A stretch of 64,000 nt of DNA, from contig PWGD01000148.1 of the NCBI GenBank assembly GCA_003554395.1, positions 5,958-69,957 of the forward strand, given 5' to 3'. Made by a program: the position numbers and the translations under genes. Origin of the DNA: Syntrophomonadaceae bacterium (lineage in GTDB: Bacteria > Bacillota > Dethiobacteria > DTU022). The notes beneath the pieces were generated by a model. That model was not told the origin of the DNA and did no database searches. It worked only from the letters and a program-made list of their open reading frames with translations. Position 1 is the first letter of the stretch. Each line of letters opens with the position of its first letter. Of this stretch, positions 1,517 through 34,837 are shown one piece after another.

Positions 1517-1525
1517 GTTAAATAA

Positions 1526-1554
1526 GGCGCCCGCAGGTTATGGGCGCTTTTTTG
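1526..1554 (+). terminator. Rho-independent terminator after tRNA-Leu
   Basis: The GC stem GCGCCC…GGGCGC is followed by TTTTTT. Confidence 0.7.
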
Positions 1555-2949: not shown

Positions 2950-2963
2950 TTAAGGAGGTTTTT

Positions 2964-3902: not shown

Positions 3903-3949
3903 AAACCTGAACTAAGATATAACTAGCTTTACAATGAGAGGTTGTTAAA

Positions 3950-14482: not shown

Positions 14483-14520
14483 GCGTTATACTTGATTTAA
14501 TACTCGCCAGTAGAGGCAAA

Positions 14521-14566
14521 AAAACAACCAGGCCGGGGCATCACTCCGGCCTGGTATTTTTTTTTG
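14521..14566. terminator. Bidirectional intrinsic terminator between the convergent genes ahcY and mtaD
   Basis: CCAGGCCGG…CCGGCCTGG forms a 9-bp GC stem flanked by an A-run on the 5' side and a T10 run on the 3' side. Confidence 0.75.
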
Positions 14567-14672
14567 GGCCCTGACCCGATTTTAAACCTCCGATAATAAT
14601 TTATGCGGTATGAAATATAACTTAATTTTTACTCATCATTAGTAAGCTGCAGGCAACAAAAGGAATCGCCCT

Positions 14673-15974
14673 TTACTGACGCAATCTGCCGGCGCATATT
14701 CCAGCTTCATGGTAAATCTTTTCTTCGTCCAGGGTCATAAATTCACCCCGGTGATAAAGGATTTTACCTTCGACGATAACTGTTTCAACATCGCTGGCTG
14801 ATGCTGAATAGACCAGGTTGGCGATCGGGTCATTATGGGGCTGTAGATGGGGCTGGCGGAAATTGATTATGGCCAAATCGGCCCTGGCTCCTTCTTTTAT
14901 AACTCCCAGCTTGCCTTCCATGTTTAGAGCCCGGGCTCCTCCCCTGGTGGCGAGGGAAAAGGCTGTATAAGCCGGGATAATGGTGGGATCTTCCTGGGTC
15001 CCCTTCTGAAGAAGGCTGGAAAGCTTAATTTCTTCAAACATATCCAGGTTGTTGTTGCTGGCAGCCCCGTCAGTTCCAAGGCCGACACAGGCATTTTTAT
15101 CGAGAAGCTGTTTTAAGGGAGCAATTCCATTGCCCAGTTTCAGATTGCTGCAGGGGTTGTGGGAAATACCGACTCTTCGCGAGCTTAATATATCAATATC
15201 TTGATCATTCAGATGGACACAGTGGCCCGCCAGGACATGCCTTTCAAACATGCCCATTTCGTCCATCAGGGCAACCGGTGTTTTATTATATTGCTTTAAG
15301 GTTTCTTCAACTTCATATCTGGATTCGGAAAGATGAATATGAATTAGTGTACCCAAATGTTCGGTTTCTTTTAAAACTCTTTTTAAAAAGTCGGGCGGGC
15401 AGGTATAAAGAGCATGGGGGCCCAGGATAGGCTGGATACGCCCGTTGTCTTCTCCCTGCCAGTTCTCAATAAACTTAATGGCATCTTCCAGGCTGTTAAA
15501 GCCCTTGTGGCTGTTTTCTGAGCCAATAAAGACCTGTGACAGCAGGGCCCGGATACCGCTTTCCTGGCAGGCCCGGGCAGTTTGCTCCATAAAATAGTAC
15601 ATATCCACGAAAGTTGTTGTCCCTCCCCGGATCATCTCCAGCAGGGCTAGCGCGGTCCCCCAGTAAACATCTTCTTCTGTCAGCTTAGCTTCGGCCGGGA
15701 ATATTTTTTTAGTCAGCCACTCCATGAGGGGATAATCATCGGCATAACTCCTGAACAGGGTCATTGCGGCATGATTGTGGAGGTTGATCAAACCGGGTAT
15801 AACAACCCTATCTTTCCCGGATATAATTTCTGTATCCCCGGGCACCTCACCTGTTCCGGGTGATATTGCTTTAATGATATTATTTTCAATGAGAAGATCT
15901 CCCGAATTGATAACGCCGCGGTTTTCATCCATGGTTACCAGGGTTGCGTTTTTAATTAATAACCTGGAGTTCAC
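14673..15974 (-). CDS. mtaD: Amidohydrolase of the MtaD / 5-methylthioadenosine–S-adenosylhomocysteine deaminase (chlorohydrolase) family
   Basis: It contains the metal-binding HxH motif (NLHNHAAMT), plus HLSES and HCVHL motifs. The N-terminus (LIKNATLVTMDE…) is typical of MtaD/SsnA-type deaminases. Confidence 0.75.
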   Translation of the reverse strand: MNSRLLIKNATLVTMDENRGVINSGDLLIENNIIKAISPGTGEVPGDTEIISGKDRVVIPGLINLHNHAAMTLFRSYADDYPLMEWLTKKIFPAEAKLTEEDVYWGTALALLEMIRGGTTTFVDMYYFMEQTARACQESGIRALLSQVFIGSENSHKGFNSLEDAIKFIENWQGEDNGRIQPILGPHALYTCPPDFLKRVLKETEHLGTLIHIHLSESRYEVEETLKQYNKTPVALMDEMGMFERHVLAGHCVHLNDQDIDILSSRRVGISHNPCSNLKLGNGIAPLKQLLDKNACVGLGTDGAASNNNLDMFEEIKLSSLLQKGTQEDPTIIPAYTAFSLATRGGARALNMEGKLGVIKEGARADLAIINFRQPHLQPHNDPIANLVYSASASDVETVIVEGKILYHRGEFMTLDEEKIYHEAGICAGRLRQ

Positions 15975-16185
15975 AGTAATCCTCCTTTAAAAAATCATCA
16001 CTCCGGCCGTTTAGGACGAGTTTAAGATGATGTCCCCGGGGAGGTTATTCGCAGTCTGATCAATAATTAACCATATCATATCAAACCCCATCAAATGGAG
16101 CAATTTAAAATCATAAATTTTGTTACCGGCTTCTATAATGTAAGCGGCGGGAGCCTTAAACCCCCGCCGCTTACAATGTTTTAGG

Positions 16186-16261
16186 TGGTGAGCCATCCAG
16201 GATTCGAACCTGGGACACCCTGATTAAAAGTCAGGTGCTCTACCAACTGAGCTAATGGCCC
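16186..16261 (-). tRNA. tRNA-Lys (anticodon TTT)
   Basis: The reverse complement gives GGGCCAUUAGCUCAGUUGG…CCUGACUUUUAAUCAGG…GGUUCGAAUCC…CACCA. Anticodon is UUU. Length is 76 nt. Confidence 0.85.
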
Positions 16262-16265
16262 TTTT

Positions 16266-16352
16266 TGGTGGAGAGGACTGGATTTGAACCAGTGAAGGCG
16301 AACGCCAGCAGATTTACAGTCTGCCCCCTTTGGCCAACTTGGGTACCTCTCC
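16266..16352 (-). tRNA. tRNA-Tyr (anticodon GTA)
   Basis: The reverse complement gives GGAGAGGUACCCAAGUUGG…GCAGACUGUAAAUCUGC…long variable arm…GGUUCAAAUCC…CCACCA. Confidence 0.8.
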
Positions 16353-16363
16353 ACAGCTCTTCA

Positions 16364-16438
16364 TGGAGCCGACGAAGGGATTCGAACCCCCAACCTGCTG
16401 ATTACAAATCAGCTGCTCTTCCATTGAGCTACGTCGGC
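16364..16438 (-). tRNA. tRNA-Thr (anticodon TGT)
   Basis: The reverse complement gives GCCGACGUAGCUCAAUGG…GCUGAUUUGUAAUCAGC…GGUUCGAAUCC…GGCUCCA. Confidence 0.85.
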
Positions 16439-16590
16439 TGAACAATTACATTCTCACAAGCAGTATATAGTATAGCTTATTTTATAAGGCCCGTCAACAG
16501 ATCTGGGGCAGGAATTTTTCGTTGTTACTCGAACAATTTTACATAGAAGTGCGTTTCTCAGTAAAGTCCTGGAAAAGGGGAGGCAAAGTG

Positions 16591-17394
16591 ATGACAGCTA
16601 TGAGGATAGCAATAATTGGGGGGTCGGGAGTTTACGAACAGTCCTTTCTTGAAGATGATAAAAAAATCAAGGTTGAAACCAGGTTTGGTCCGGTAGCTAT
16701 AAAACAGGGAACATACCGGGATCGCACTGTTTTTTTTATGGCCCGTCACGGAGGCGGACATACCGTTCCTCCTCACCTCATCAATTACCGGGCCAACATA
16801 GCGGCCTTAAAAAAACTTAAAGTAGATGCAGTTATTGCCACGGCCGCAGTGGGGTCCCTTCGCCGGGAATTAACCCCGGAAAGCCGTGTCATTATCGACC
16901 AATTTATTGATTTTACAAAACAGCGCCCTCTTACATTTTATGAAGGTGAAGAAGGTTTCGTGGTTCATACTGATTTTTCGGAACCATATTGCCCTGAAAT
17001 CAGGTCTGTTATTTTGAGGGCGGGCCGGGATTTAGGCCAAACCATGATTGATGGAGGGTGTTACATCTGTACCGAAGGGCCCCGCTTTGAGACTCCGGCA
17101 GAAATTAAGATGTTCAAAAGCTGGGGTGTAGATGTTGTTGGTATGACCAATATTCCGGAAGCAACCCTGGCCAGGGAAGCGGGCCTATGTTATGCTACCA
17201 TTGCTTTGCCGACCAATTACGCTGCCGGAGTGAGCTCCGAACCGCTAACCCAGGATGAAGTTCTTGCTGCCATGGATAAAGATAAACCGGAACTGGAACG
17301 GTTGATTGCCGCCTCGATAGCCAGATTAAAAACCGGAACTTCCTGCCGCTGCAGAGAAGCCGGAAATAAATATCCCAAGGAGCAAACCAGTTAG
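16591..17394 (+). CDS. mtnP: 5'-methylthioadenosine / purine nucleoside phosphorylase
   Basis: The PNP/MTAP family N-terminus is MTAMRIAIIGGSGVYEQ. The GTEGPRFETPAE and GMTNIPEA motifs match the phosphorylase active site. The ORF track begins 23 codons upstream (16522), but GGGGAGG lies just before GTG/ATG 16588–16591. Confidence 0.8.
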   Translation: MTAMRIAIIGGSGVYEQSFLEDDKKIKVETRFGPVAIKQGTYRDRTVFFMARHGGGHTVPPHLINYRANIAALKKLKVDAVIATAAVGSLRRELTPESRVIIDQFIDFTKQRPLTFYEGEEGFVVHTDFSEPYCPEIRSVILRAGRDLGQTMIDGGCYICTEGPRFETPAEIKMFKSWGVDVVGMTNIPEATLAREAGLCYATIALPTNYAAGVSSEPLTQDEVLAAMDKDKPELERLIAASIARLKTGTSCRCREAGNKYPKEQTS

Positions 17395-17396
17395 AA

Positions 17397-18458
17397 ATGA
17401 AAGAACCTGATGAGCTACCGACCCTTTACTGGAAAAACAACCGTCTCTATATTCTCGATCAAAGACTTTTACCCCACCACATAGAATACCTGACCTGCAG
17501 CAGTTACCGCGAGGTCGTCGATGCGATTTGTGATATGGCGGTGCGGGGCGCTCCGGCAATCGGAATCGCCGCCGCTTTTGGGATGGCGGTAGCCGCCCGG
17601 GAAGCTTTGGCAAAAAGGGATGAATCAATCCTAATGCGTTCTTACCTGGAGGAAGCTTCGGAAAAACTTCTGCAATCACGGCCTACCGCTGTTAACCTTT
17701 TCTGGGCCTTGAAAAGGATTAACCGCTGGCTCTCCATAAATGATGAGTTATCGCCGCAGCAGATTGCCGACGGACTGGTCAGTGAAGCCGAAAAAATATT
17801 AAAAGAAGATCTTGAAAATAACCGGAAAATTGGTATAAACGGCTCAGTACTGGTTCCCGGCCGGGCCTCAGTCTTAACCCACTGCAATGCCGGGGCGTTG
17901 GCTACCGGCGGCTACGGCACTGCCCTGGGGATTGTCAGGGCCGCGGCTGCGGAAGGCAAAGAGGTTCATGTTTTTGTTGATGAAACCAGACCCCTGCTCC
18001 AGGGGGCCCGACTGACAGCTTTTGAAATGATCCATGAACAGATCCCGGCAACTCTCATTACCGATAATTGTGCCGGTTACCTGATGAAGCAGGGAAGAAT
18101 TGACTTAATTATAGTGGGTGCCGACCGTATTGCCGGTAATGGCGATACCGCCAATAAAATCGGCACCTATTCCCTGGCCGTTATGGCCGCTTATCATAAC
18201 ATTCCTTTTTATGTAGCCGCCCCGCTTTCCACTATTGATCCTGCCCTGCTTTCCGGACATGACATTATAATTGAAGAGCGAAAATGGGAAGAAGTAACTC
18301 ATCTTAAGAACCATCATCTTGCGCCTGAAGGCATTAATGTTTACAATCCCGCTTTTGATGTAACCCCGGCCGGTTTGATTAAAGCTATTATTACCGAAAA
18401 AGGCGTTGTATATAGCCCCAACCGGGAAAAACTTTATAAACTCTTCACAAAGGTATAA
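17397..18458 (+). CDS. mtnA: S-methyl-5-thioribose-1-phosphate isomerase (eIF-2B alpha/beta/delta-like)
   Basis: It has the full-length MtnA architecture (…LYILDQRLLPHH…VRGAPAIG…THCNAGALAT…VGADRIAGNGDTANKIGTY…). A GGAGCAAACCAG site lies upstream. Confidence 0.85.
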   Translation: MKEPDELPTLYWKNNRLYILDQRLLPHHIEYLTCSSYREVVDAICDMAVRGAPAIGIAAAFGMAVAAREALAKRDESILMRSYLEEASEKLLQSRPTAVNLFWALKRINRWLSINDELSPQQIADGLVSEAEKILKEDLENNRKIGINGSVLVPGRASVLTHCNAGALATGGYGTALGIVRAAAAEGKEVHVFVDETRPLLQGARLTAFEMIHEQIPATLITDNCAGYLMKQGRIDLIIVGADRIAGNGDTANKIGTYSLAVMAAYHNIPFYVAAPLSTIDPALLSGHDIIIEERKWEEVTHLKNHHLAPEGINVYNPAFDVTPAGLIKAIITEKGVVYSPNREKLYKLFTKV

Positions 18459-20860: not shown

Positions 20861-22435
20861 ATGGATAAGCAACCGCCAAGTATTTTCAATGACGTCATCG
20901 GGCCTGTAATGCGTGGTTCCTCGAGTTCACATACCGCCGCTTCGGTTCGAATCGGAGCTTTGATCAGGCAGTGCCTGTCCGGGCCCTGCCGCTACTGCCG
21001 GGTTGATTTTGACCCGGGAGGATCGCTGGCTTCTACTTACCATGAGCAGGGCGCTGATATCGGCCTGGCCGGAGGTCTCCTGGGTATGGATTTAAGCAAT
21101 CCGGAGTTGATTAAGGCCCTGGAGATTGCCCGGAACAACAACCTGGACATTTCTTTCAATATTACATCTTTTCCGAACAACCATCCCAATACGTACCGGA
21201 TCAACGCTGCTGCCGGCAAAGGGGAAGAAATGGAGTTTATTTGCCTGTCAACCGGCGGAGGCATGATTGAAATCCAGCGAATCAATAATTTAGCTGTTTC
21301 AATTTGTGGTGATTTCCACGAAACCCTGTTTTTTTTCCATGAAGACGATTCTGCCGCTTTAGAGGAATTAGGGCAAAAAATTACAAAATTAATTCCCGGT
21401 TATGATTACCTGGCTACAGCGACGACAAAAAATAAAGGGCTGATTAACCTTAAAACCGGTTTCAAGGTCGAGGAACAGTTGAAAGGCTTAGCTGAGCACC
21501 CCAAACTGCGCTCAATAATCACAATAGAGCCGGTTTTACCAATTCTTTCCAGCAAAAACTGCCGGGTTCCTTTTGAAAGGGTCGAGGAAATAATTAGCCT
21601 TGCCGAAAAGGAAAATCTGCAAAGCTGGGAACTGGCCCTTCGTTATGAAAGCGCCCGCGGGAGAATACCGGCAGCTGAAACCTATAATATGGCCCGCGAC
21701 CTGGTCCGGATTATGGATGAATCGATCCGGAAAGGGCTTGCCGGGACTGATTACAGCAATCGCATCCTGGGCCCCCAGGCTTATAAGATTCAAGCACAGA
21801 GGAGCAAATTGATCGGGGGGCGGTTAACTGCCGATATTATTGCCAATATCAGCGCAGTAATGGAATCAAAGAGCGCCTTCGGAGTTATTGTAGCAGCGCC
21901 AACGGCAGGCTCATGCGGCACTTTGCCGGGCACGCTCACTGCTTTGGCCGCAGATATGAAGATGGACCAGGATCATTTAATTAAAGCAGTGCTTGCTGCC
22001 GGTTTGATCGGAATCCTGATCGCGAGAAACAGCACTTTTGCTGCCGAAGAAAACGGCTGCCAGGCCGAATGCGGTTCAGCTTCCGGAATGGCGGCAGCGG
22101 GCCTGGTTCAGATGATGGGTGGTTCGGTAAGGGAAAGCCTTGATGCGGCGGCCATGGCCCTGCAGAATATCATGGGTATGGTTTGCGACCCGGTAGCGGA
22201 AAGAGTCGAGGTGCCCTGCCTGGGGAAAAATATCATGGCCGGTCTTAATGCGGTCGGCTGCGCCAACATGGCCCTGGCCGGTTTTGACAGGGTCATCCCC
22301 CTGGATGAAACAATAAAGGCCATGGACAGCTGCGGCAAAATGCTCCCCCCTGAACTGCGCTGCACCGGCCGGGGCGGATTATCTTTAACCACAACGGCCA
22401 AAGAAATTTATAAGCGCCTGAACAAGCACCCCTAA
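20861..22435 (+). CDS. sdaA: L-serine dehydratase, iron-sulfur dependent, with fused beta-alpha chains
   Basis: The N-terminus GPVMRGSSSSHTAA matches the SSSHT motif of Fe-S L-serine dehydratases. The C-terminal alpha-domain motifs are also present (…AAPTAGSCGTLPG…, …CDPVAERVEVPC…). Confidence 0.8.
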   Translation: MDKQPPSIFNDVIGPVMRGSSSSHTAASVRIGALIRQCLSGPCRYCRVDFDPGGSLASTYHEQGADIGLAGGLLGMDLSNPELIKALEIARNNNLDISFNITSFPNNHPNTYRINAAAGKGEEMEFICLSTGGGMIEIQRINNLAVSICGDFHETLFFFHEDDSAALEELGQKITKLIPGYDYLATATTKNKGLINLKTGFKVEEQLKGLAEHPKLRSIITIEPVLPILSSKNCRVPFERVEEIISLAEKENLQSWELALRYESARGRIPAAETYNMARDLVRIMDESIRKGLAGTDYSNRILGPQAYKIQAQRSKLIGGRLTADIIANISAVMESKSAFGVIVAAPTAGSCGTLPGTLTALAADMKMDQDHLIKAVLAAGLIGILIARNSTFAAEENGCQAECGSASGMAAAGLVQMMGGSVRESLDAAAMALQNIMGMVCDPVAERVEVPCLGKNIMAGLNAVGCANMALAGFDRVIPLDETIKAMDSCGKMLPPELRCTGRGGLSLTTTAKEIYKRLNKHP

Positions 22436-22604
22436 AATACGAAATCAGTTTAAGTCTGCTTCAGCTTTAAATATTTCGTCATAGTTGAAACGGTTGGCAC
22501 AGGCTTAATAAAGCAGAGGCCTATTATGATATAATACAAGCACAAAGATGGGATAATAAGTTAATATTTGCAGGGCATAAGGGCAAAAAAAACAGGGATG
22601 ATAA

Positions 22605-23510
22605 ATGACCAAAGGCCTCATTTTCAATATTCAACGATATTCACTGCATGACGGACCGGGAATAAGAACGACGATCTTTTTAAAAGGCTGCCCCTTGAGC
22701 TGCTGGTGGTGCCAGAATCCGGAGAGCATCAACCGGGAACCTGATCTCATGAGGCAACCCGACCGCTGCCTGGGCTGCGGTTCCTGCCAGGAAGCCTGCC
22801 CGGAAGGGGCGGTCAGAAGCGGTAAAGTCGGGCCGGTTATAGACCGTGACCTCTGCACCCGCTGCCTGAAATGCACTGTGGTTTGTCCTGCAGAAGCCCT
22901 GGAAGCGGTGGGTAGAGAATATACGGTATCAGAACTGGTAAGGGAAGCGCTCAAGGATCGTTTTATTTTTGACAGTTCAGGGGGCGGGGTAACTTTTTCC
23001 GGTGGAGAACCCCTGATGCAGCCCGATTTTCTTGAAGAGTCTCTTCAGGCCTTTTGCAAGGAAGGAATCCATACAGTTGTGGATACTTCCGGTTGTGCGC
23101 CCTGGCCGATCCTGGAAAAAATTTCTGTTTACACCGACCTGTTTCTGTATGATCTTAAATTGATTGACGACCTCGAAAGTGAGGAATATACCGGCTTATC
23201 AAGCCGTTTGAGTGTGGAGAACTTAAAAAAGCTGGTGGAAAAAGGGGCTTTGATTCAAATTCGGATGCCGGTAGTTCCTTTAATCACCGATTCCATCGCA
23301 AATATTAATTCCATAGCCGATTTGCTTATTGAATGCGGCCTTAATGAGTTGGAACTAATACCTTATCACAATTACGGCACTGCCAAGTATGCCAGGCTTG
23401 ATCTTGAATACCGGCCCGGAACAATAAAGGTTCCCACGGCAGAACAAATGGACAGGATCAAAGCCCGCTTTGAGAACCGGGGAATAAGAATAAGCAGTGA
23501 GGATGATTGA
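22605..23510 (+). CDS. Glycyl-radical-enzyme activating enzyme (radical SAM) with two extra ferredoxin-like [4Fe-4S] motifs
   Basis: The radical-SAM CxxxCxxC motif is CPLSCWWC, in the N-terminal context YSLHDGPGIRTTIFLKGCPLSC typical of GRE activases. Two additional clusters are CLGCGSCQEACPEG and CTRCLKCTVVCPAEA. Its stop (23510) abuts the start of the GRE gene. Confidence 0.85.
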   Translation: MTKGLIFNIQRYSLHDGPGIRTTIFLKGCPLSCWWCQNPESINREPDLMRQPDRCLGCGSCQEACPEGAVRSGKVGPVIDRDLCTRCLKCTVVCPAEALEAVGREYTVSELVREALKDRFIFDSSGGGVTFSGGEPLMQPDFLEESLQAFCKEGIHTVVDTSGCAPWPILEKISVYTDLFLYDLKLIDDLESEEYTGLSSRLSVENLKKLVEKGALIQIRMPVVPLITDSIANINSIADLLIECGLNELELIPYHNYGTAKYARLDLEYRPGTIKVPTAEQMDRIKARFENRGIRISSEDD

Positions 23511-23511
23511 T

Positions 23512-25893
23512 ATGAATAACAACAGAAGAGGGATGAATGAAAGGATAAAAAAATTAAGGCAGCAAAGCGAAGATACAAACCCGTCAATCACCGCTGAAAG
23601 AGCTTTGCTGGTCACTGAGGCTTATCAGCATTATGCCGGTAAAGTATCCGCACCAATACTCAGGGCGCTTACATTTCAGCACCTGCTGGAGAACAAGACC
23701 ATCTGCATCAATGAAGAGGAGCTGATAGTCGGAGAACGCGGAACCGGACCCCAGGCCACGCCCACTTACCCCGAATTGTGCTGCCATACCGTCGAGGATC
23801 TGGAAGTGATCAACAACCGTAAAACCATTTCTTTTAAGGTAAGTGAAGAGGTGAAGCGGATTCAGGAAGAAACTCTGATTCCTTACTGGCAGGGCCGTTC
23901 CATGCGGGATAAAATATTTAACAGGATGAGCCCTGAATGGCTTGACTGTTACAAAGCCGGACTATTTACCGAATTTATGGAACAGCGCGCACCCGGTCAT
24001 ACCGTGGCCGGAGATAAGATTTACCGGAAAGGGATGCTCGATCTAAAAGAAGAAATTGCCGCTGCCCTGGGCTCTCTTGATTTTGCCAATGACCCTGAAG
24101 CTGTTTCCAAGAACGAGCAGCTGGAAGCCATGTCTCTCTGTGCCGATGCCCTGATCACTTTTGCCGGCAGGCATGCCCAAAAAGCCCGGGAGATGGCGGA
24201 AGAAGAAACCAACCCCCGGCGCAAGGAAGAGCTGCAGCAAATTGCTTCTGTCTGTCAGCGTGTGCCGGCCCTGCCGCCCCGTAATCTCTGGGAAGCACTC
24301 CAGTATTACTGGTTCGTGCACCTGGGAGTGGTGACCGAACTTAATACCTGGGACGCCTTCTGCCCGGGAAGACTTGATCAACATCTGGCCCCCTTCTACT
24401 ACAGGGGCCTGGAAGAAGGAACGCTGACCAGGGCTGGAGCGAAAGAGTTGCTGGAATGCTTCTGGATCAAATTTAACAACCAGCCTGCTCCACCCAAGGT
24501 GGGAATTACTTTAAAGGAGAGCGGTACATATACCGATTTTGCCAACATCAACCTGGGTGGAGTTAAACCAGATGGCAGTGACGGTGTAAATGATGTTACC
24601 TATTTGCTGCTGGAAGTAATCGATGAGATGAGGCTGCTGCAGCCGAGCACCAACGTCCAGGTCAGTAAAAAAAGTCCCGACCTTTTCCTTAAAAAAGCAG
24701 GAGAGGTTATCAGGAAAGGGTGGGGCCAACCTTCAGTTTTTAATGTTGAAGCAGTCATCGGCGAACTGCTGGGCCAGGGCAAATCCCTGGTTGACGCCCG
24801 TTGCGGAGGAACCAGCGGCTGCGTGGAAACCGGCGCTTTTGGCAAAGAGAGTTATATCCTGACCGGGTATTTCAACCTGGTAAAGGTTCTCGAAATAACC
24901 CTTAACGGCGGTAAAAATCCGGCGGACGGCAAACAACTGGGCCTGGATACCGGCAGCCCGGAGCGGCTTGAAAATTTCGAGCAGCTGCTCGAAGCCTTTG
25001 AAAAACAGCTCCGCCATTTTATTGACATCAAAATCGCCGGCAACCAGGTCATTGAAAAATTATATGCTGAACAAATGCCGGCCCCATTTTTATCCCTGAT
25101 TATTGATGATTGCATCGATAAGGGCAAGGACTATAATGCCGGCGGGGCCCGCTATAACACCAATTATATACAGGGTGTGGGCATCGGTACCATTACCGAC
25201 AGCCTTTCAGCGCTTAAAAAGCATATCTATGATGAAAAGAATTTTACCTGGGATGAACTGCTCGATACCTTAAAAGACAACTACCAGGGGCAGGAACAGG
25301 CCCGGCAATTTTTGATCCATAAAACCCCGCATTATGGAAACGATAATGACTATGCCGACTCTGTCATGCAGGATGTTTTTAAACGTTTTTACCGCACCGT
25401 GGACGGGCGCAGGACGGCCCGCGGGGGAACATATCGCATCAATATGCTGCCCACCACCTGCCACGTCTATTTTGGGTCGGTCATTGGAGCGACACCTGAT
25501 GGGCGCCTGGCCGGAATGCCCTTATCGGAAGGTATTTCACCGGTCCAGGGCGTTGATTTAAACGGGCCCACAGCGGTAATTAAATCAGCCTCGAAGATGG
25601 ATCACCTGCTTACCGGCGGCACCCTGCTGAACATGAAATTTACCCCCCGGATCCTGGAGGGAAACAAGGGGTTGGATAGCCTGGCCCAGCTGATCCGGTC
25701 ATATTTCATACTGGACGGCCACCATATCCAGTTTAATGTAATCGATGCCGAGACCCTGCGCGAGGCTCAAAATAATCCGGAACAATACCGCAGCCTGATC
25801 GTAAGGGTGGCCGGATACAGCGACTATTTCAATAACTTAAGCGAACAGCTTCAAAATGAGATCATTGCCCGGACGGCCCATGAAATGGGCTAA
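23512..25893 (+). CDS. Glycyl radical enzyme of the pyruvate-formate-lyase superfamily, eliminase (GCVE) clade. It is a candidate 4-hydroxyproline dehydratase or diol dehydratase type, with substrate unresolved.
   Basis: The C-terminal glycyl-radical motif is LIVRVAGYSDYFNNL (RVxGY). The active-site segment DARCGGTSGCVETG carries a Cys-x-Glu pair as in glycerol dehydratase, CutC and HypD. Size is ~794 aa. A GAGGA site lies 7 nt before ATG 23512; the ORF track starts at GTG 23497. Confidence 0.85.
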   Translation: MNNNRRGMNERIKKLRQQSEDTNPSITAERALLVTEAYQHYAGKVSAPILRALTFQHLLENKTICINEEELIVGERGTGPQATPTYPELCCHTVEDLEVINNRKTISFKVSEEVKRIQEETLIPYWQGRSMRDKIFNRMSPEWLDCYKAGLFTEFMEQRAPGHTVAGDKIYRKGMLDLKEEIAAALGSLDFANDPEAVSKNEQLEAMSLCADALITFAGRHAQKAREMAEEETNPRRKEELQQIASVCQRVPALPPRNLWEALQYYWFVHLGVVTELNTWDAFCPGRLDQHLAPFYYRGLEEGTLTRAGAKELLECFWIKFNNQPAPPKVGITLKESGTYTDFANINLGGVKPDGSDGVNDVTYLLLEVIDEMRLLQPSTNVQVSKKSPDLFLKKAGEVIRKGWGQPSVFNVEAVIGELLGQGKSLVDARCGGTSGCVETGAFGKESYILTGYFNLVKVLEITLNGGKNPADGKQLGLDTGSPERLENFEQLLEAFEKQLRHFIDIKIAGNQVIEKLYAEQMPAPFLSLIIDDCIDKGKDYNAGGARYNTNYIQGVGIGTITDSLSALKKHIYDEKNFTWDELLDTLKDNYQGQEQARQFLIHKTPHYGNDNDYADSVMQDVFKRFYRTVDGRRTARGGTYRINMLPTTCHVYFGSVIGATPDGRLAGMPLSEGISPVQGVDLNGPTAVIKSASKMDHLLTGGTLLNMKFTPRILEGNKGLDSLAQLIRSYFILDGHHIQFNVIDAETLREAQNNPEQYRSLIVRVAGYSDYFNNLSEQLQNEIIARTAHEMG

Positions 25894-25922
25894 AATACAA
25901 CTGCTTTAAAATGCGGCGGCGC

Positions 25923-25951
25923 GTTGACATTAAGATCTAAATAAGCTAAAA
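25923..25951 (+). promoter_or_regulatory. Sigma-A-type promoter for tRNA-Trp
   Basis: TTGACA, then 17 nt, then TAAAAT. It ends ~12 nt upstream of the tRNA 5' end. Confidence 0.55.
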
Positions 25952-25963
25952 TATGAGCTGTGA

Positions 25964-26039
25964 AGGGGAGTAGCTCAACTGGCAGAGCAGCGGTCTCCAA
26001 AACCGCAGGCTGCGGGTTCAAGTCCTGTCTCCCCTGCCA
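25964..26039 (+). tRNA. tRNA-Trp (anticodon CCA)
   Basis: AGGGGAGUAGCUCAACUGG…CGGUCUCCAAAACCG…GGUUCAAGUCC…CUCCCCUGCCA. Anticodon is CCA. Length is 76 nt. Confidence 0.85.
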
Positions 26040-26147
26040 TCGAGCTTGACGAGATGCCGCTTTAAAAGCGGCATCTCGCTAGATTGATCATTTAAAAGGA
26101 GAAGGCCTATGACCGGCCATGACTGGAAAATTTTACCTGAACCTTTT

Positions 26148-26185
26148 AGATCTACTTTTAAAAGTCGAAACCGGCTTTTTTTTTT
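26148..26185 (+). terminator. Hairpin plus U-tract downstream of tRNA-Trp
   Basis: AAAAGTCG-aaac-CGGCTTTTTTTTTT. A longer GC hairpin without a U-tract lies directly after the tRNA at 26050–26080. Confidence 0.4.
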
Positions 26186-26299
26186 GCTCAAGGCAATTAT
26201 AGTTGAAACCGGTAGTCTGTTCGATAGAAATATTTATCGGAACAACTTATTAGCTTATTAAGGGGCTATTAATAGAAATAACTTTAAGGAGGGATTCAT

Positions 26300-27316
26300 T
26301 TGCATACTACTAATATTATACTATGGGGACTGGGAGCTATGGGTTCAGGTATTTACAAAGTTCTCCTGGAGCGCAGTGGCCCCGTTGTAAAAGGGGCAAT
26401 CGGCCAAAATCCCTTTAAGCTGGGCAAAGATTTGGGCACTATCCTGGGCATGGAACCAACCGGAACTATTATTTCCGGAGATGCGCAGGCAGTGCTTGAA
26501 AATGCCGATGCAGGGCTGGTTCTCCATTCCACCGGCTCATTCTTCAAAGAAATACATCACGAATTAATGCAGGCGGTCCGGGCGGGATGTAACGTCATTA
26601 CCATAGCTGAGGAGATGGCCGAGCCCTGGGCGGCCGATCAGATGCTGGCTGACGAGCTAAACGAAGAAGCTAAAAAATTTGGTGTTACAGTTATTGGAAC
26701 GGGCATTAATCCCGGTTTTGTCCTGGATGCCCTGGCCATCTGCCTTACCGGTGCCTGCTGTCAGGTCACCAAGATCGAGGCCGAAAGAATTAACGATCTA
26801 TCTCCATTCGGAAGCACTGTAATGGCTACCCAGGGTGTAGGGATTAGTCCGGAGCAATTTAAAAAGGGGATTGAGAATAACACTATTGTCGGGCATATAG
26901 GTTTCAAACAATCGATCTGCCTGATTGCCAGGGCTTTAAACTGGGATCTTGATCAAATTACCGAAGAAAAAGAGCCGATTATCTCATCTACTTACCGGGA
27001 GACTCCATATGTCAAAGTAGAGCCGGGCATGGTTGCCGGCTGCAATCACCGCGCCTACGGTTATATAAACGGCGAAGCAGTAATCACCCTTAAACACCCC
27101 CAGCAGGTATGCCCTGAAGCAGAAAACGTGGAAACCGGTGATTATATCAGAATTGAGGGCACCCCGCCGATAAACCTGTCCATAAAGCCTGAAATCCCGG
27201 GCGGCCTGGGAACGATGGCCATGGCGGTTAATATGATCCCGGTGGTGACTGCTGCCGGTCCGGGCTTGAAAACACTGCTGGACCTGCCTTTCCCTTCCTG
27301 CTGGAGCAGGGTATAG
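26300..27316 (+). CDS. ord: 2,4-diaminopentanoate dehydrogenase (DapB-like NAD(P) fold) of the ornithine oxidative pathway
   Basis: The N-terminal Rossmann motif is IILWGLGAMGSGIYKVL. The ~340-aa size and the position directly upstream of ortA, ortB, oraS and oraE match the described ornithine fermentation cluster. AGGAGGG lies before TTG 26300. Confidence 0.7.
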   Translation: MHTTNIILWGLGAMGSGIYKVLLERSGPVVKGAIGQNPFKLGKDLGTILGMEPTGTIISGDAQAVLENADAGLVLHSTGSFFKEIHHELMQAVRAGCNVITIAEEMAEPWAADQMLADELNEEAKKFGVTVIGTGINPGFVLDALAICLTGACCQVTKIEAERINDLSPFGSTVMATQGVGISPEQFKKGIENNTIVGHIGFKQSICLIARALNWDLDQITEEKEPIISSTYRETPYVKVEPGMVAGCNHRAYGYINGEAVITLKHPQQVCPEAENVETGDYIRIEGTPPINLSIKPEIPGGLGTMAMAVNMIPVVTAAGPGLKTLLDLPFPSCWSRV

Positions 27317-27397
27317 CCGAATTAAAAAGGTTTTAATTTAACTGTAATTCAAAAAGCGGGCGGTTAAGAGCAATCTGCCCTGAAAGGAGAATCAACT

Positions 27398-27712
27398 ATG
27401 GAAAAAGCGCAGACAGGTGACTGGGTCCAGGTCTTCAAAGTGGTTCTCAAACCGGAGGAAAGAGCCCCCGGCCTGCCCCCGGAAACTGCCAAAGTCCCCC
27501 TGACTATGAAGGTTAAGGGTTTCCTGATCGATCAAGCGGCCGCGGTTGGCGATCAGGTAGCAATCCGGACTGCAACAGGCAGAAAAGTGGAGGGGAAGCT
27601 GATCGGGATCAATCCGGCCTACGAGATCGATTATGGCCGGCCCCAGCCGGAACTATTAAATATAGGCTTTGAAACAAGAAGCCTGTTAAGTGGGGAGGCC
27701 GACAAGCAGTGA
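27398..27712 (+). CDS. ortA: 2-amino-4-ketopentanoate thiolase, small (alpha) subunit
   Basis: It is ~104 aa, translationally coupled to the PLP subunit that follows, and conserved in gene order with ord upstream. Confidence 0.65.
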   Translation: MEKAQTGDWVQVFKVVLKPEERAPGLPPETAKVPLTMKVKGFLIDQAAAVGDQVAIRTATGRKVEGKLIGINPAYEIDYGRPQPELLNIGFETRSLLSGEADKQ

Positions 27713-29127
27713 ATAACAACCCTGATTTTAGCTACCAGGGAGTAATGTCCAGGAAAAACCGGATTATGAAGCAGGCTGTAGGTATCGACTATGATCAGTT
27801 CGAGCTGGAGGGGATTGCCTTTGATTACGATGCAATGATGAACAAGGCCGGTTATTCACTGGAAGAAGTGCGTAAAATCCAGGAGGAAACCAATGTGGGC
27901 AAAACCCCGCTCTTTGAAATGCATAACCTGACCAAGCTGGTACGCCTCCATGCGGAACCGGGAAAAGGAGCGCGCATTTTTATCAAGGATGAAGCCTGCA
28001 ATCCCAGCGGCAGTTTCAAGGCGCGGCGGGCTTCGCTATCATGTTACCAGGCCCAAAAGCAAGGCTACAGGGGCGTAATATCGGCCACCAGCGGCAATTA
28101 CGGCGCCGCAGTGGCCTCCCAGTCCGCCATGCGCGGTTTGAACTGCATCGTGGTCCAGGAACTTTTCGACAGCCAGGATTTAAGCCAACCGGAAATTATG
28201 GAAAAAGGCCGGGCCTGCGAAGCCTACGGCGCTGAAGTGGTCCAGCTTTCCGTGGGGCCGGAGCTGTTTTACAAGTTCCTGATTTTGCTGGAAGAGACGC
28301 AGTATTTCAATGCCTCATTATATACCCCTTTCGGTATTGCCGGCATTGAAACTCTCGGCTATGAACTGGCCGAACAGGTTCGCCGGACGGTGGGCAAAGA
28401 TCCTGCCGCTGTCCTTATCACCCATGCCGGGGGCGGAAATGTGACCGGCACAGCCAGAGGCCTTCAAAAAGCGGGTTGTAAAGATACAGATGTGATCGGC
28501 ATCAGTGTCGACTTAAGCGGCCTGCACATGGCCAGCGATCACGATTTCAACCGGAAATCATTTACTACCGGCCACACCGGTTTTGGGGTTCCCTTTGCCA
28601 CTTGGCCGGACCGGGCTGATGTGCCGCGAAATGCGGCCCGTTCCTTGAGGTACCTGGATCGCTATTATACGGTGACCCAGGGTGAAGTTTTTTACATGAC
28701 CGAACTCCTGGCCCAGTTGGAAGGGCTTGAAAGAGGCCCGGCAGGCAATACTTCCCTGGCCGGAGCTTTTGCCTTAGCCATGGAAATGGACCGCGACGAT
28801 GTCATTGTTGTACAGGAAACAGAATACACGGGAGCCGGAAAGCACCCCAGCCCCCAGCTTACTTTTGCCCGCAAACTGGGCATAGCGGTAAAAAGGGGCA
28901 AGCCTGAAGAGAGCATCCCCGGTCAGAATATTATCATCCCTGAATCCCCGGCCCAGATAGCGGTTAAAAGGGTAGACCTGGACAACTTAAAAAAATCGTA
29001 CCTAAAGAAGGTGGCCCAGGAAAAGGGCGGTGGAGCCTTGAGTCCGGTAGAACTGGATTATCTGGCCGCCGAACTGAAGACTTCAACCGGATGGGTTGAA
29101 AAACATTACGGGAAGGCAGGAGGATAA
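27709..29127 (+). CDS. ortB: 2-amino-4-ketopentanoate thiolase, PLP-dependent beta subunit (tryptophan-synthase-beta/threonine-synthase fold)
   Basis: The fold-type II PLP lysine motif is NPSGSFKARRA, and a glycine-rich loop TSGNYGAAVA is present. It is ~472 aa and overlaps the ortA stop (GTGA). Confidence 0.7.
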   Translation: MNNNPDFSYQGVMSRKNRIMKQAVGIDYDQFELEGIAFDYDAMMNKAGYSLEEVRKIQEETNVGKTPLFEMHNLTKLVRLHAEPGKGARIFIKDEACNPSGSFKARRASLSCYQAQKQGYRGVISATSGNYGAAVASQSAMRGLNCIVVQELFDSQDLSQPEIMEKGRACEAYGAEVVQLSVGPELFYKFLILLEETQYFNASLYTPFGIAGIETLGYELAEQVRRTVGKDPAAVLITHAGGGNVTGTARGLQKAGCKDTDVIGISVDLSGLHMASDHDFNRKSFTTGHTGFGVPFATWPDRADVPRNAARSLRYLDRYYTVTQGEVFYMTELLAQLEGLERGPAGNTSLAGAFALAMEMDRDDVIVVQETEYTGAGKHPSPQLTFARKLGIAVKRGKPEESIPGQNIIIPESPAQIAVKRVDLDNLKKSYLKKVAQEKGGGALSPVELDYLAAELKTSTGWVEKHYGKAGG

Positions 29128-29128
29128 T

Positions 29129-29497
29129 ATGAAGCGCGAGGATGATTACAGGCAGCGCCGTTCCACGGTGAAAAATTTAACCGATGAGCAGCTGGATCAT
29201 AAATTTTGGGGACTAACCGACCAAGTGGTTAACCCCCTTTTCGAGCTGGCCCGGGGCCATACTTCACCATCTATTGAACGTTCCGTCCTGCTGAGGATGG
29301 GCTTTTCCAGCCTGGAGGCCAAGCAAATCGTCCTGAATTGCGGTAAATATGGCCTGCTGGGCAAAGGAGCAGGGCACGTAGTGCTGCGCTTTGCCCAAAA
29401 ACGCAACCTGCCATACCGGGAAGCCGGCTTAATTTTGGCCGAGGGCCGGGAATGGGATCAGGCTGCAGCCTTGTTTGAAAAGGAGGGGCCATCTTGA
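29129..29497 (+). CDS. oraS: D-ornithine 4,5-aminomutase, small (S) subunit
   Basis: It is ~122 aa from the ATG preceded by GGAGG (MKREDDYRQRRS…). It lies immediately upstream of, and overlapping, the large E subunit. The ORF track has a longer N-terminal extension from 29096. Confidence 0.65.
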   Translation: MKREDDYRQRRSTVKNLTDEQLDHKFWGLTDQVVNPLFELARGHTSPSIERSVLLRMGFSSLEAKQIVLNCGKYGLLGKGAGHVVLRFAQKRNLPYREAGLILAEGREWDQAAALFEKEGPS

Positions 29498-31710
29498 AAC
29501 TAACACCGGAACAAAAACTTTCCCCTGAAGAGATTTTAAAAGACCTGGACCGGTACAGACCAAGACGCAAAGGCTGGACCTGGCGCCGCTCGATAAAGGA
29601 TGATGATGCTAAAATTGGGCCCTTTGAATACCGGCAGGCTGCTGAACCCCTCAAAAAAAGTATTCCCCTGCCTGCGGCCAAATCATTTGGCGGCATAGAT
29701 CCGCACCCTGGTTGTGTGGTCACCTCGGAAATTGCTTCCGGGCGTTTTGAAGATGATCTCCGCCGGATGAGGATGGTGGCCTGGCACGGGGCCGACCATC
29801 TCATGGTTATTCGGACCGCGGGGCAAAGCCACTTCGACGGTTTAATCGAAGGCACTCCTGAAGGAGTAGGCGGGGTGCCCATTTCAAGAAAGCAGATCCG
29901 GGCCACCCGCAAAGCCCTGGACCTGATTGAAGATGAAGTAGGTAGACAGCTTAACTTTCATTCCTACATAAGCGGGGTGGCCGGCCCGGAAATAGCCGTT
30001 CTTTTTGCTGAAGAAGGGGTTAATGGCGCCCACCAGGACCCTCAGTACAATGTCCTTTACCGGAATGTAAACATGTACCGCTCTTTTGTCGATGCGGCTG
30101 TAGCCAAAAAATTAATGCTTTCTGCCAATATCCTGCAGATAGACGGGGCCCATAACGCCAATGCTACGGCCAGGGAAGCCTGGAAGGTGATGCCGGAACT
30201 ATTAGTGCAGCATGCCATAAACTGCCGCTATTCGGAACTTGTCGGCATGCCCCGGGAAAACATCGCTCTTTCTACGGTTCCGCCAACCGCACCGCCGGCC
30301 CCGGCCCTGCGCATAGACCTGCCTTACGCGGTGGCCCTGCGCCAGCTTTTTAAAGATTTTAAAATGCGGGCCCAGATGAACACCAAGTATATGGAATCAT
30401 GCACCAGGGAAGTAACCGTTACCCACCCCCTCAACCTGCTCTTATCGAGACTGACCAGCGCCGATATCCAGAGCACAATTACTCCCGATGAAGGACGTAA
30501 CGTGCCCTGGCATTACAATTCTGTTCATGCCGTCAATACGGCCAGGCAGGCCCTGATCGGCCTGGATGGGATTACGGACATGGTTAAATTAAACCTGGAA
30601 GGAGAACTGGGCCATAAATCCCGGGAATTAAAAGAACGGGCCGTGCTCTTCCTGGAGGAAATCCTGGAAGTTGGAGGTTATTTTGCCGCTGTTGACCAGG
30701 GCTTTTTTGTCGATTCCGGCTTTTACCCGGAACGAAACGGGGACGGCATTAAACGTGATCCCGCGGGCGGGGTGGCATCCGATTCTATAGTGCCCCGCGA
30801 AGAGGATTATTATGCCCCCGTCTGCCACCACTTTGGATACAACAACCCGCCAATTGATTTTGGGGATCATTCTTCACCATGCGCCCCCATCGATGGTTGC
30901 TCCCTCTGCCGACCCGAAAAAATTATATACATTGACGAATTAGACCCTGAAGACAATGTTGAAAAAAGACTTGAGAAAAGCAGGCAATACCGGGAGAATA
31001 CCTTTAAGCCTGAAGCAGAGTGGGCCGGCGACGGAATTGTAACCATGACCATGTTACTGCCAGTATCTGAAGACATGGCAGAATATGGCGCCATGGATAT
31101 TGCCGGGCGTATGAACCTGGAAGATGTCGAAGTGATTAACCTGCAAAAAATGCACCCCGCGGAAGGCACCCTGGTAGAAATCAAAGGCAGGGTCGGTTTC
31201 AGCCTTGACCCGAAGAATATAACCATACCTCATAAAGAAGCTGTCCTTTCAGAAGAGGAAATCCGCCTGGCGGTCCAGAACAGGCCTCTCACTATAGTGG
31301 CCGGCACCGTCGGCGAAGACGAACATTCAGTTGGCATGAGAGAGATTCTTGACATTAAGCACGGTGGGCTGGAGGGATTTGGCATAGACTGCCACTACCT
31401 GGGAACATCGGTGCCGATCGAAAAGATGGCTGATGCTGCAGTCGAACTTGATGCCGACGCTATTTTGATCAGCACTATTATCACCCACAATGATGCTCAC
31501 CGTCAGAGTATGCGCAAACTAAACCAGGTTTGCCGGGAAAAAGGGCTGCGCGACGAGTTAATCTTAGTTGCCGGAGGAACCCAGGTAACCAATGAAATCG
31601 CCCAGGAAGAAGGTCTCGATCGGGGTTTTGGTCGAGGAACCAAGGGGATTGATGTTGCCAGTTTCCTGATCAAAAAAAAGGATTCGGTGGAAAAGAATCG
31701 TGAAAATTGA
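29494..31710 (+). CDS. oraE: D-ornithine 4,5-aminomutase, large (E) subunit, adenosylcobalamin- and PLP-dependent
   Basis: It is ~738 aa. The C-terminal B12-binding domain carries a DxHxxG motif (EDEHSVG) and a GG…GTQ Rossmann-like segment. The N-terminal TIM-barrel part is aminomutase-like. Confidence 0.75.
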   Translation: MKLTPEQKLSPEEILKDLDRYRPRRKGWTWRRSIKDDDAKIGPFEYRQAAEPLKKSIPLPAAKSFGGIDPHPGCVVTSEIASGRFEDDLRRMRMVAWHGADHLMVIRTAGQSHFDGLIEGTPEGVGGVPISRKQIRATRKALDLIEDEVGRQLNFHSYISGVAGPEIAVLFAEEGVNGAHQDPQYNVLYRNVNMYRSFVDAAVAKKLMLSANILQIDGAHNANATAREAWKVMPELLVQHAINCRYSELVGMPRENIALSTVPPTAPPAPALRIDLPYAVALRQLFKDFKMRAQMNTKYMESCTREVTVTHPLNLLLSRLTSADIQSTITPDEGRNVPWHYNSVHAVNTARQALIGLDGITDMVKLNLEGELGHKSRELKERAVLFLEEILEVGGYFAAVDQGFFVDSGFYPERNGDGIKRDPAGGVASDSIVPREEDYYAPVCHHFGYNNPPIDFGDHSSPCAPIDGCSLCRPEKIIYIDELDPEDNVEKRLEKSRQYRENTFKPEAEWAGDGIVTMTMLLPVSEDMAEYGAMDIAGRMNLEDVEVINLQKMHPAEGTLVEIKGRVGFSLDPKNITIPHKEAVLSEEEIRLAVQNRPLTIVAGTVGEDEHSVGMREILDIKHGGLEGFGIDCHYLGTSVPIEKMADAAVELDADAILISTIITHNDAHRQSMRKLNQVCREKGLRDELILVAGGTQVTNEIAQEEGLDRGFGRGTKGIDVASFLIKKKDSVEKNREN

Positions 31711-33055
31711 TCTACTAGTTGCAGATATCGGAAGCACCATTACTATGATTAGTGCCTTTGATGGCCTGGGTATCGGGCGGCCCGCCTTCCTGGGCCAGGG
31801 GCAGGCTCAAACTTCAGTAGAGTCTGAAGATGTTACTATTGGGCTTTCCAAGGCCCTGGTCAACCTGGAAGAAAAGCTAGGTGAAAAAATAGCCTGGGAT
31901 CGTTTTTTAGCCTCCAGTTCGGCAGCGGGCGGTTTAAGAATGTCCGTCCATGGCCTGGTTTACGATATGACCGCGAAGGCCGCCAAAGAAGCAGCCCTGG
32001 GAGCGGGCGCAGTTGTTAGCATGGTTACAGCCGGCGAGCTCACTGAAGAGAATCTGGAGGGCCTGACTGCAGTTAATCCCAGTATCATCCTCCTGGCCGG
32101 AGGAGTAGATCACGGAGAAAAAGAGACCATCTTAAAAAATGCATCTCTACTCAGCAGCTGGTTAAGAGAGCAGGGAAAAACCCTTCCGGTCATTTACTGC
32201 GGCAACCAGGCTGCGTTTAAAAAGGCCCATAGCATATTCAGAGATAAAGAGCTTTCCCTGATCAATAGCGAAAACGTATATCCTAAAATAGATCAATTAA
32301 ACGTAGAGCCGGTGCGAAGAGAGATACATCGTGTTTTTAACAGGCATATTGTTGAAGCCAAGGGAATGGAAAAAATACGCTCTATGGTGGAAGAAGAAAT
32401 AATCCCCACCCCGGGGGCAGTCATGGAAGCCTCTCTTCTGTTTTATAAGCATAGGGGGGATTTGCTGGTTTTTGATGTTGGAGGGGCTACGACAGATGTG
32501 CATTCTGTAACAGATGGTTCCGATGATATTCAACACCTGCTGCTTCACCCCGAACCTAAAGCTAAAAGAACTGTCGAAGGAGATCTGGGGGTATATCGGA
32601 ATGCTCCCCGTTTGATTGAACTGTGCATGGAAAATAGCAACAACCCAGGATTTGAGAGCAATCTTCAGGCCGGTATTGAACCGATCCCCGGCAGCAGCCG
32701 GCAGATCGAACTGATCGGGATTCTGACCGAACAGGCTTTAAAAACAGCCCTGATCAGGCATGCTGGATCCTGGCGCTATATATATGGTCCTACAGGCCGT
32801 CAGACAATGGTTGAAGGTAAAGATCTCACCTGCATAAAAACGGCAATCGGAACCGGGGGCGCCCTGTCCCAATTGCCGGGAGGGAAAGAAAAAATGGCGA
32901 AGGCCCTGAAAGGTAAAACCGGCCTTGAGTTGCTGCCCCGCGGTGATGTGATGCATTTAATAGACAATTACTATATAATGGCTGCAGTAGGGGTTCTCAG
33001 CATGAGCGACCCCGATAGTGCCTGGCAGCTTTTATCCAGAAGTCTAAACTTATAA
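31700..33055 (+). CDS. GlmL/MutL-like actin-fold accessory protein, a putative reactivase/chaperone for the B12 aminomutase
   Basis: The N-terminus [17 protein letters not shown] is an ASKHA phosphate-1 motif. It is ~450 aa, as for glutamate-mutase GlmL/MutL-type proteins, and is translationally coupled to oraE. Confidence 0.55.
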
Positions 33056-33078
33056 CCAATACAACTTATATAAACGGG

Positions 33079-34278: not shown

Positions 34279-34837
34279 TTAAATTAACAAATAAAAATTT
34301 TTAAAAAGCTATTGACAAATTAGCAGTACCGATCAATAATACCAGTACCAGGTTCCGAGAGACTGGAACGCGAACCGGGTTCGGTCGAGAGGGAAGGCCG
34401 GAAGTGAAGGAAGGGTTAACCCGAATTCACGGAAGGTTATCCACAAGGCCGAATCGCTGCAGGAGCCGGTAAAAGAAAGGCTTAAGAGCCGGGATTTACC
34501 GGAAATCACAGCACGGAGAAAAGTAGCTGTCCGGAGGTTGGGGGGAAAGCCATCCAGAGGTGGTGGCGGAAGCCCGGCTGTAGAGGGGTCAGTGAAGAAA
34601 TCCGACGGTGAGCTGGAAGGCCTGTTGGGACCTGGTTTATTATGAATGGCCCTTATTACAGTTTCAACCTGCGCTGTCTTACTTCTTATCCTAAAAGCTT
34701 ATTCACCTTTGCTTTTAAGCCCTATCCAAAAAGTATGGCCCGGAATATAGCCACATATCTTCATCCCCTAGCTATTGCATTAATTATGCCATTTGGTTAG
34801 AATAAGTGTTAAGTTTTAAAAGAGAGGAAAGATTAAA

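Follow-up and report, generated by a model that had tools for sequence, protein, structure and literature searches.

A predicted trans-4-hydroxy-L-proline dehydratase and its activase in a putative two-gene operon of a sediment Syntrophomonadaceae bacterium

In this study, we analysed a 64,000-nucleotide stretch of contig PWGD01000148.1 from a Syntrophomonadaceae bacterium (assembly GCA_003554395.1), hereafter called the window, and focused on two adjacent genes at 22605-25893 that encode a glycyl radical enzyme (GRE) and its activating enzyme. Our results point to the GRE being a HypD orthologue, that is a trans-4-hydroxy-L-proline dehydratase, and to the activase gene and hypD forming a translationally coupled operon that would serve the anaerobic use of hydroxyproline, a reading to which we assign a probability of about 0.93. 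An earlier sequence-only reading of this DNA had placed the protein among the GREs of Cys-x-Glu eliminase type and had suggested a 4-hydroxyproline dehydratase, while considering a different amino-acid or sulfonate substrate as equally possible. As detailed below, the former suggestion is supported by family models and by solved structures, and the parity between substrates is not, as the alternatives score about half as high and under their curated cut-offs.

The protein matches the glycyl radical enzymes overwhelmingly above chance (E = 0), and a Pfam domain scan recovered PFL-like (781 bits) and Gly_radical (124 bits) domains. Its Cys loop reads GCVE (residues 436-439; 24817-24828, + strand), with Cys437, the expected thiyl radical site, and Glu439 forming the Cys-x-Glu (CXE) pair and matching Cys434 and Glu436 of Clostridioides difficile HypD. 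The glycyl radical motif RVAGY, which carries Gly768, lies at residues 765-769 (25804-25818, +) and was recovered by motif search, alignment and the Gly_radical model. Both motifs had been read from the sequence before, with the proviso that an unconserved Gly or Cys would overturn the call; Gly768 and Cys437 are both conserved. The lack of a Cys-Cys pair of the pyruvate formate-lyase (PFL) type was likewise correctly noted: GCVE holds a single Cys, and the protein does not qualify as a PFL (TIGR01255, 134 bits for a cut-off of 994). For family calls we used the NCBIfam equivalog models with their curated cut-offs. NF043068 (glycl_HYPD equivalog) was matched at 1380 bits for a cut-off of 1100, over profile positions 1-783 of 784. 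The other GRE equivalogs stayed well under theirs, namely HpsG (576/1000), HpfG (532/1000) and CutC (522/1050), as did the models for indoleacetate decarboxylase (IAD, 418/1100) and 4-HPA decarboxylase (HPAD, 328/1150).

A search of all PDB sequences with the window protein gave a consistent picture. The best match is HypD of C. difficile (6VXC/6VXE), with 1160 bits; residues 6-790 of the query align with residues 22-806 of the chain with zero gaps, at 60.9% identity over 785 aligned residues. From this gapless 61% alignment to a crystallised HypD, a 6VXE-like fold can be expected, with a ten-stranded GRE barrel and a 6VXE-like substrate pocket. The runner-up enzymes are glycerol dehydratase (567 bits), propanediol dehydratase (504), CutC (494), HpyG (8ID1, 472), HpzG (8IOF, 457), IslA (418) and HplG (7VUA, 406). 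Among them, 8ID1 and 8IOF are the N-methyl-cis-4-hydroxy-L- and -D-proline dehydratases and 7VUA is a trans-4-hydroxy-D-proline C-N lyase (2026 GRE review, PMC13450708). Firm clustering with a clade of another known substrate had been named as the outcome that would speak against hydroxyproline; judged by PDB scores, no other solved GRE exceeds 567 bits. The N-terminal strings ELCCHTVEDLEV and FTEFMEQRAPGHTV, quoted earlier as unlike B12-independent glycerol dehydratase, both occur in the protein and agree with C. difficile HypD at nearly every letter.

The active site was compared next. In the C. difficile enzyme, structure and mutagenesis assigned the radical and CXE roles to Cys434, Glu436 and Gly765, and essential acid/base roles to His160, Asp278 and Asp339; both aspartates are reported to be strictly conserved among HypD enzymes and unconserved in other eliminases (PMC7077986). 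In the same work, Ser334, Tyr450 and Thr645 bind the substrate carboxylate, Phe340 stacks on the ring, Phe152 and Trp277 provide further contacts, and Arg156 and Lys326 act as charge partners (PMC7077986). His160, Asp278 and Tyr450, which had been singled out for inspection, are identical in the window protein, and so are twelve further residues, so that all 15 named positions agree (F152, R156, H160, W277, D278, K326, S334, D339, F340, C434, V435, E436, Y450, T645 and G765). The numbering is that of C. difficile plus three, giving His163, Asp281, Asp342, Ser337, Phe343, Cys437, Tyr453, Thr648 and Gly768. Relatives were collected by scanning a collection with one genome per species, in which at least 596 candidate stretches encode HypD relatives; the best 80 of these (62-75% identity) served as the orthologue set for all residue and synteny counts. 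Across these 80 orthologues, which come from many phyla, the 15 residues are invariant, save that R156 and G765 each vary in a single sequence. The equivalents of His160, Asp278 and Asp339 are unchanged in 81/81 HypD-like sequences, whereas an HpyG-type paralogue has E, A and M there. Three GRE paralogues that neighbour HypD in relatives (L001, L002 and L005) differ at 9/15 positions, including His160, Asp278, Ser334, Asp339, Tyr450 and Thr645, and keep only R156, F340, C434, V435, E436 and G765. On these comparisons the signature is specific: it discriminates HypD from a neighbouring paralogue, and the window protein carries all of it.

The predicted trans-4-hydroxy-L-proline dehydratase gene occupies 23512-25893 (+; 793 amino acids plus the stop codon), an assignment based on NF043068, the 6vxc alignment and the signature residues. 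Its open reading frame extends back to a GTG at 23497, and the ATG at 23512 is the likeliest start because a Shine-Dalgarno GAGG (23499-23502, +) lies 9 nucleotides upstream, because the activase stop TGA (23508-23510) ends two bases before it, and because the resulting 793-residue product is identical to a gene call in public collections, where two longer variants have no exact match. The length of 794 amino acids given previously is corrected accordingly. With the GAGG lying within the last codons of the activase gene and the hypD start so close behind its stop, the arrangement is one of predicted translational coupling. Upstream of the pair, a 169-nucleotide leader (22436-22604, +) follows a serine dehydratase (SDH)-like gene and is the probable promoter region of the operon. 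By eye, TGATATAAT near 22526-22534 resembles an extended -10 element; a consensus promoter scan found no + strand promoter in 22436-22604, and Rfam searches (E ≤ 1) of 22400-22650 found no riboswitch or leader RNA upstream of the operon.

The activase gene (22605-23510, +, ATG start) encodes a radical S-adenosylmethionine (SAM) GRE activase of 301 amino acids, as deduced from the open reading frame, motifs, profile models and synteny. A motif search of the translation located the radical-SAM motif CPLSCWWC (C29-x3-C33-x2-C36; 22689-22712, +) and two auxiliary ferredoxin-type [4Fe-4S] motifs of the form CX2CX2CX3C (22767-22886, +), namely CLGCGSCQEAC (C55-C65; 22767-22799) and CTRCLKCTVVC (C84-C94; 22854-22886). 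The presence of a dedicated activase with two extra ferredoxin-type clusters, as proposed before, was thus found again. A GGE motif stands at residues 133-135, and Pfam matched Radical_SAM and several Fer4 models (Fer4, Fer4_6 and Fer4_7 over residues 52-100). The protein also passes the GRE-activase subfamily model TIGR02494, with 333 bits for a cut-off of 174.

The mechanism that we propose is transferred from the characterised C. difficile HypD; we infer the chemistry and the fate of its product, placing them upon the observed gene structure, family, active site and synteny. The CX3CX2C [4Fe-4S] cluster of the activase would cleave SAM reductively, with the two auxiliary clusters probably passing electrons, and the 5'-deoxyadenosyl radical would take a hydrogen from Gly768 of HypD. 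At each turnover, the glycyl radical would generate a thiyl radical on Cys437, which would then take a hydrogen from C5 of trans-4-hydroxy-L-proline. The carboxylate would be held by Ser337, Tyr453 and Thr648, with Phe343 stacking on the ring, while His163 and Glu439 would position the 4-hydroxyl. Asp281 would remove the ring-nitrogen proton and protonate the departing 4-hydroxyl, aided by His163, Glu439 and, through a water molecule, Asp342. Water would be lost from C4 and the hydrogen returned to C4, yielding (S)-delta-1-pyrroline-5-carboxylate (P5C).

The window HypD is a singleton at 90% clustering, and the genome collection scan revealed no relative above 75% identity. The best 80 relatives come from Bacillota, Chloroflexota, Acidobacteriota, Planctomycetota, Ignavibacteriales, Atribacterota, Gemmatimonadota and one Bathyarchaeota metagenome-assembled genome (MAG). 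This broad spread agrees with the published distribution of HypD, known from eleven phyla and from sediment enrichments, and widespread in environmental anaerobes and sediments (PMC6219649). Compared with C. difficile HypD and its activating enzyme (HypD-AE), the window pair shares the Gly loop, the Cys loop, the complete set of catalytic and substrate residues and an adjoining three-cluster radical-SAM activase. The two systems differ by their hosts, as C. difficile is a gut Clostridium and the window comes from an uncultured anaerobe of sediment that is most closely related to Syntrophomonadaceae MAGs. They also belong to different genomic settings. In Clostridium loci the P5C reductase gene proC comes right after HypD (L036, L038, L042, L046, L048 and L072), whereas in the window it lies 9 kb away in a proCBA operon. 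Such adjacency of proC and hypD, seen in 6/80 loci that are all Clostridium-like, is too rare to define the family.

The closest orthologues (73-75% identity) belong to Syntrophomonadaceae MAGs (L001, L002, L003, L005 and L007), which share with the window the activase-HypD order and a downstream ornithine aminotransferase gene. Orthologues of this aminotransferase (72-75% identity) start 150-1350 nucleotides after HypD in L001, L002, L005 and L007; it follows HypD directly in these MAGs, whereas a tRNA-Trp gene and a six-gene ornithine cluster intervene in the window. The L001 locus further forms a hydroxyproline island, with an HpyG orthologue (within 1-9000; 1227 bits to 8ID1) and its activase, a trans-3-hydroxy-L-proline dehydratase (NF047722, 628 bits for a cut-off of 550) and a Liv-type ABC transporter, none of which is in the window. 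A second, divergently transcribed pair of GRE and activase genes stands beside HypD in L001, L002 and L005. NuoEF-like and sarcosine-oxidase-like flavoprotein genes lie downstream in L001, with no counterparts in the window. Finally, glycerol dehydratase of Clostridium butyricum (PDB 1R8W) shares with the window enzyme the fold, the CXE Cys loop, the glycyl radical motif and a 1,2-elimination of water (PMC13450708); beyond its far lower score, it differs in the N-terminal region and in the pocket, where its Phe333 faces Ser337 of the window protein. Furthermore, HypD acts on an amino acid, with C5 as the site of hydrogen abstraction and C4 as that of its return (PMC7077986, PMC13450708).

Some observations weigh against assigning the operon to hydroxyproline use. 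The top NCBIfam family of the activase is T4HPD_activ_SAM (NF043069), but its 358 bits fall short of the cut-off of 425, so that the window activase is more divergent on the HypD-AE model than those next to HypD in Clostridium sporogenes, C. carboxidivorans, Sporomusa and Paramaledivibacter, which reach the cut-off (428-497 bits). Since HypD-adjacent activases of other lineages also fall short, namely those of two Syntrophomonadaceae MAGs (337 and 341 bits), Formimonas (385) and an Acidobacteriota MAG (369), this cut-off seems tuned to Clostridia-like sequences. With the cut-off missed, we file the window activase as the probable HypD activase on the basis of its adjacency, the predicted coupling and the conserved synteny: in the majority of the 80 loci, HypD is immediately preceded by an activase gene, and the exceptions are mostly contigs that end just upstream. 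In addition, annotation of almost all open reading frames of at least 90 amino acids in the 64-kb window yielded no gene for a proline reductase, a prolidase or a hydroxyproline transporter. Lastly, proC is not adjacent to hypD and belongs to a biosynthetic operon, so that the step from P5C to proline rests on general metabolism, without dedicated synteny.

One alternative is a GRE that dehydrates or cleaves another hydroxyproline isomer or derivative. Such enzymes have the same CXE Cys loop, the same fold and related substrates (PMC13450708), and close relatives of the window host do carry an HpyG orthologue beside HypD, as in L001. Yet the window protein scores less than half as high against HpyG, HpzG and HplG as against HypD, it holds the nine signature residues that the HpyG-type paralogue lacks, and it is the only GRE encoded in the window. 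We consider a substrate of this kind very unlikely. A Cys-x-Glu eliminase acting on a non-amino-acid substrate, that is a glycerol or propanediol dehydratase, a choline trimethylamine-lyase, or an isethionate or sulfopropanediol lyase, appears highly improbable. While these eliminases also have GCVE, RVAGY and a PFL2-type architecture, and TIGR01774 (PFL2-3) is only narrowly missed (675.6 bits for a cut-off of 678.2), the equivalog models reach about half of their cut-offs and the corresponding PDB matches stay at or below 567 bits. Moreover, Ser337 sits where glycerol dehydratase, propanediol dehydratase, CutC and IslA have Phe (PMC7077986), and no microcompartment shell, aldehyde dehydrogenase or sulfite reductase gene is found nearby. 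As for a decayed or inactive PFL-like pseudoenzyme, we found no support for it, and the full-length open reading frame, the gapless HypD alignment, the intact Gly768, Cys437, Glu439 and binding residues, and the intact activase that appears to be coupled to hypD make it hardly credible. Altogether, a HypD orthologue with its own activase accounts best for these data.

Downstream of hypD, a tRNA-Trp(CCA) gene (25964-26039, +) follows directly, preceded by a promoter-like site (25924-25952, +), and a terminator-like hairpin (26160-26179, +, with a T-run to about 26189) marks the 3' boundary of the hypD unit. The region beyond holds a complete oxidative ornithine-degradation cluster of six genes (26300-33055, +) between hypD and the ornithine aminotransferase gene, a cluster that the sequence-only reading had overlooked. 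The ord (26300-27316), ortA (27398-27712), ortB (27709-29127) and oraE (29494-31710) genes pass their NCBIfam equivalog cut-offs; oraS (29129-29497) was identified by Pfam OAM_alpha only, and the GlmL-related Or-4 protein (31700-33055) scores just short of its cut-off (597.1 for 600). A mobile insertion at tRNA-Trp, with the ornithine cluster as an island, was considered and is unsupported, as the 3' end of the tRNA is not repeated in an att-like manner and 22300-35000 is free of meaningful direct repeats. Directly 3' of the cluster, the gene of the ornithine--oxo-acid aminotransferase (33079-34278, +) reaches 661 bits with NF003145 for a cut-off of 656. Further on, proC (34838-35653, +; TIGR00112, 261 bits for a cut-off of 197) lies 8.9 kb downstream of hypD and opens a proline-biosynthesis operon, proC-proB-proA, with proB at 35613-36776 (+) and proA at 36817-38070 (+). 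The aminotransferase and proC had been reported at about 9 kb, and both identifications stand; the argument drawn from proC for a hydroxyproline substrate is weakened by its place at the head of proCBA. The purine-rich gap of 560 nucleotides (34279-34837, +) that precedes this operon, with a TTGACA box towards its 5' end, may be a leader of an uncharacterised kind. Rfam gave no match for it (E ≤ 1), and a 361-nucleotide stretch of it showed no significant structure when folded (z = -1.6).

On the 5' side, the gene at 20861-22435 (+) encodes a fused SDH-beta/SDH-alpha protein of 524 amino acids. It had been called an L-serine dehydratase directly upstream of the GRE pair; the position and the SDH-like nature are right, and the substrate is uncertain, as the protein reaches the cut-off of no L-serine ammonia-lyase equivalog model (alpha, 226.8 bits for a cut-off of 243.2; beta, 113.3 for 161.2; monomeric, 145.8 for 345.1). 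L045 (Ca. Formimonas warabiya) and L066 encode homologues with 42-47% identity at less than 10 kb from HypD. An exact 11-mer, ATAGTTGAAAC, occurs twice in the 64 kb, at 22481-22491 and 26199-26209 (+), that is 114 nucleotides upstream of the activase start and 91 nucleotides upstream of the ord start, and contains a TTGAAA hexamer that resembles a -35 element. It is absent from all 80 related HypD loci, and its count with one mismatch (3) is not above that of shuffled sequences. It could be a promoter or operator shared by the two operons, or a chance repeat.

With regard to the fate of P5C, its reduction to L-proline by ProC appears most likely, and ProC is the likely consumer of the HypD product. 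HypD may serve here as a route to a Stickland acceptor, as a carbon and nitrogen source, or for the supply of proline. The ornithine aminotransferase offers a further way to form or consume P5C/glutamate semialdehyde. In a different outcome, hydroxyproline would be converted to P5C/glutamate-5-semialdehyde, then to ornithine by the aminotransferase acting in reverse, and finally to acetyl-CoA and alanine via OraSE, Ord and OrtAB, with a yield of ATP. Such a route would explain why the aminotransferase comes right after hypD in four Syntrophomonadaceae MAG loci (L001, L002, L005 and L007), why ord-ortAB-oraSE stands between hypD and the aminotransferase in the window, and why ATAGTTGAAAC is found upstream of both operons. 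We nevertheless regard it as unlikely: no ornithine racemase gene was found in the 64-kb window, ATAGTTGAAAC is conserved in no related locus, and the equilibrium of ornithine aminotransferase normally favours P5C. Whichever the destination, proline or ornithine catabolism, HypD, the aminotransferase and ProC converge on P5C/glutamate semialdehyde, and the neighbourhood is coherent with a HypD function.

Other features of the window are worth recording. A 1452-residue protein (3950-8308, +) with two acyl-CoA dehydratase activase domains (BcrAD/HgdC-type ATPase) adjoins the genes of a thiolase (1765-2949) and an ornithine carbamoyltransferase (2964-3902). At 10093-11511 (+), YqeC (selenium cofactor biosynthesis, residues 17-212) is fused to a MocA/YgfJ-type molybdenum cofactor cytidylyltransferase (267-458). 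A methionine/SAM-salvage cluster at 13034-18458 comprises adenosylhomocysteinase, methylthioadenosine (MTA) phosphorylase, methylthioribose-1-phosphate isomerase and a TRZ/ATZ-family deaminase, and is interrupted by tRNA genes for Lys, Tyr and Thr at 16186-16438. The deaminase gene is on the minus strand; its product is related to the MTA/S-adenosylhomocysteine/5'-deoxyadenosine deaminases and scores below all equivalog cut-offs. These salvage genes could recycle 5'-deoxyadenosine or MTA from radical-SAM enzymes. Directly upstream of leuA (2-isopropylmalate synthase; 50511-52064, - strand), a T-box leader was found at 52128-52357 (-), with 125.6 bits for a gathering score of 93. Finally, the Na+-translocating decarboxylase subunits OAD beta, biotin carrier and OAD gamma, encoded at 59503-61498 (-), fit an anaerobic fermentative lifestyle.

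HypD has been known since 2017, with a structure since 2020, and occurs widely in anaerobes of the gut and of the environment (PMC6219649, PMC7077986). As read from its sequence, the activase-hypD pair belongs to this already known enzyme family, as an ordinary two-gene operon that automated annotation can name correctly. Our results thus add one further HypD orthologue, from a sediment metagenome. They suggest that its host can use hydroxyproline, with P5C as a node common to ornithine and proline metabolism. Sources of hydroxyproline include collagen, plant or algal cell walls, and peptides. The lineage-specific linkage of hypD to an ornithine aminotransferase gene and to an oxidative ornithine cluster could hint at a non-Stickland fate of P5C.

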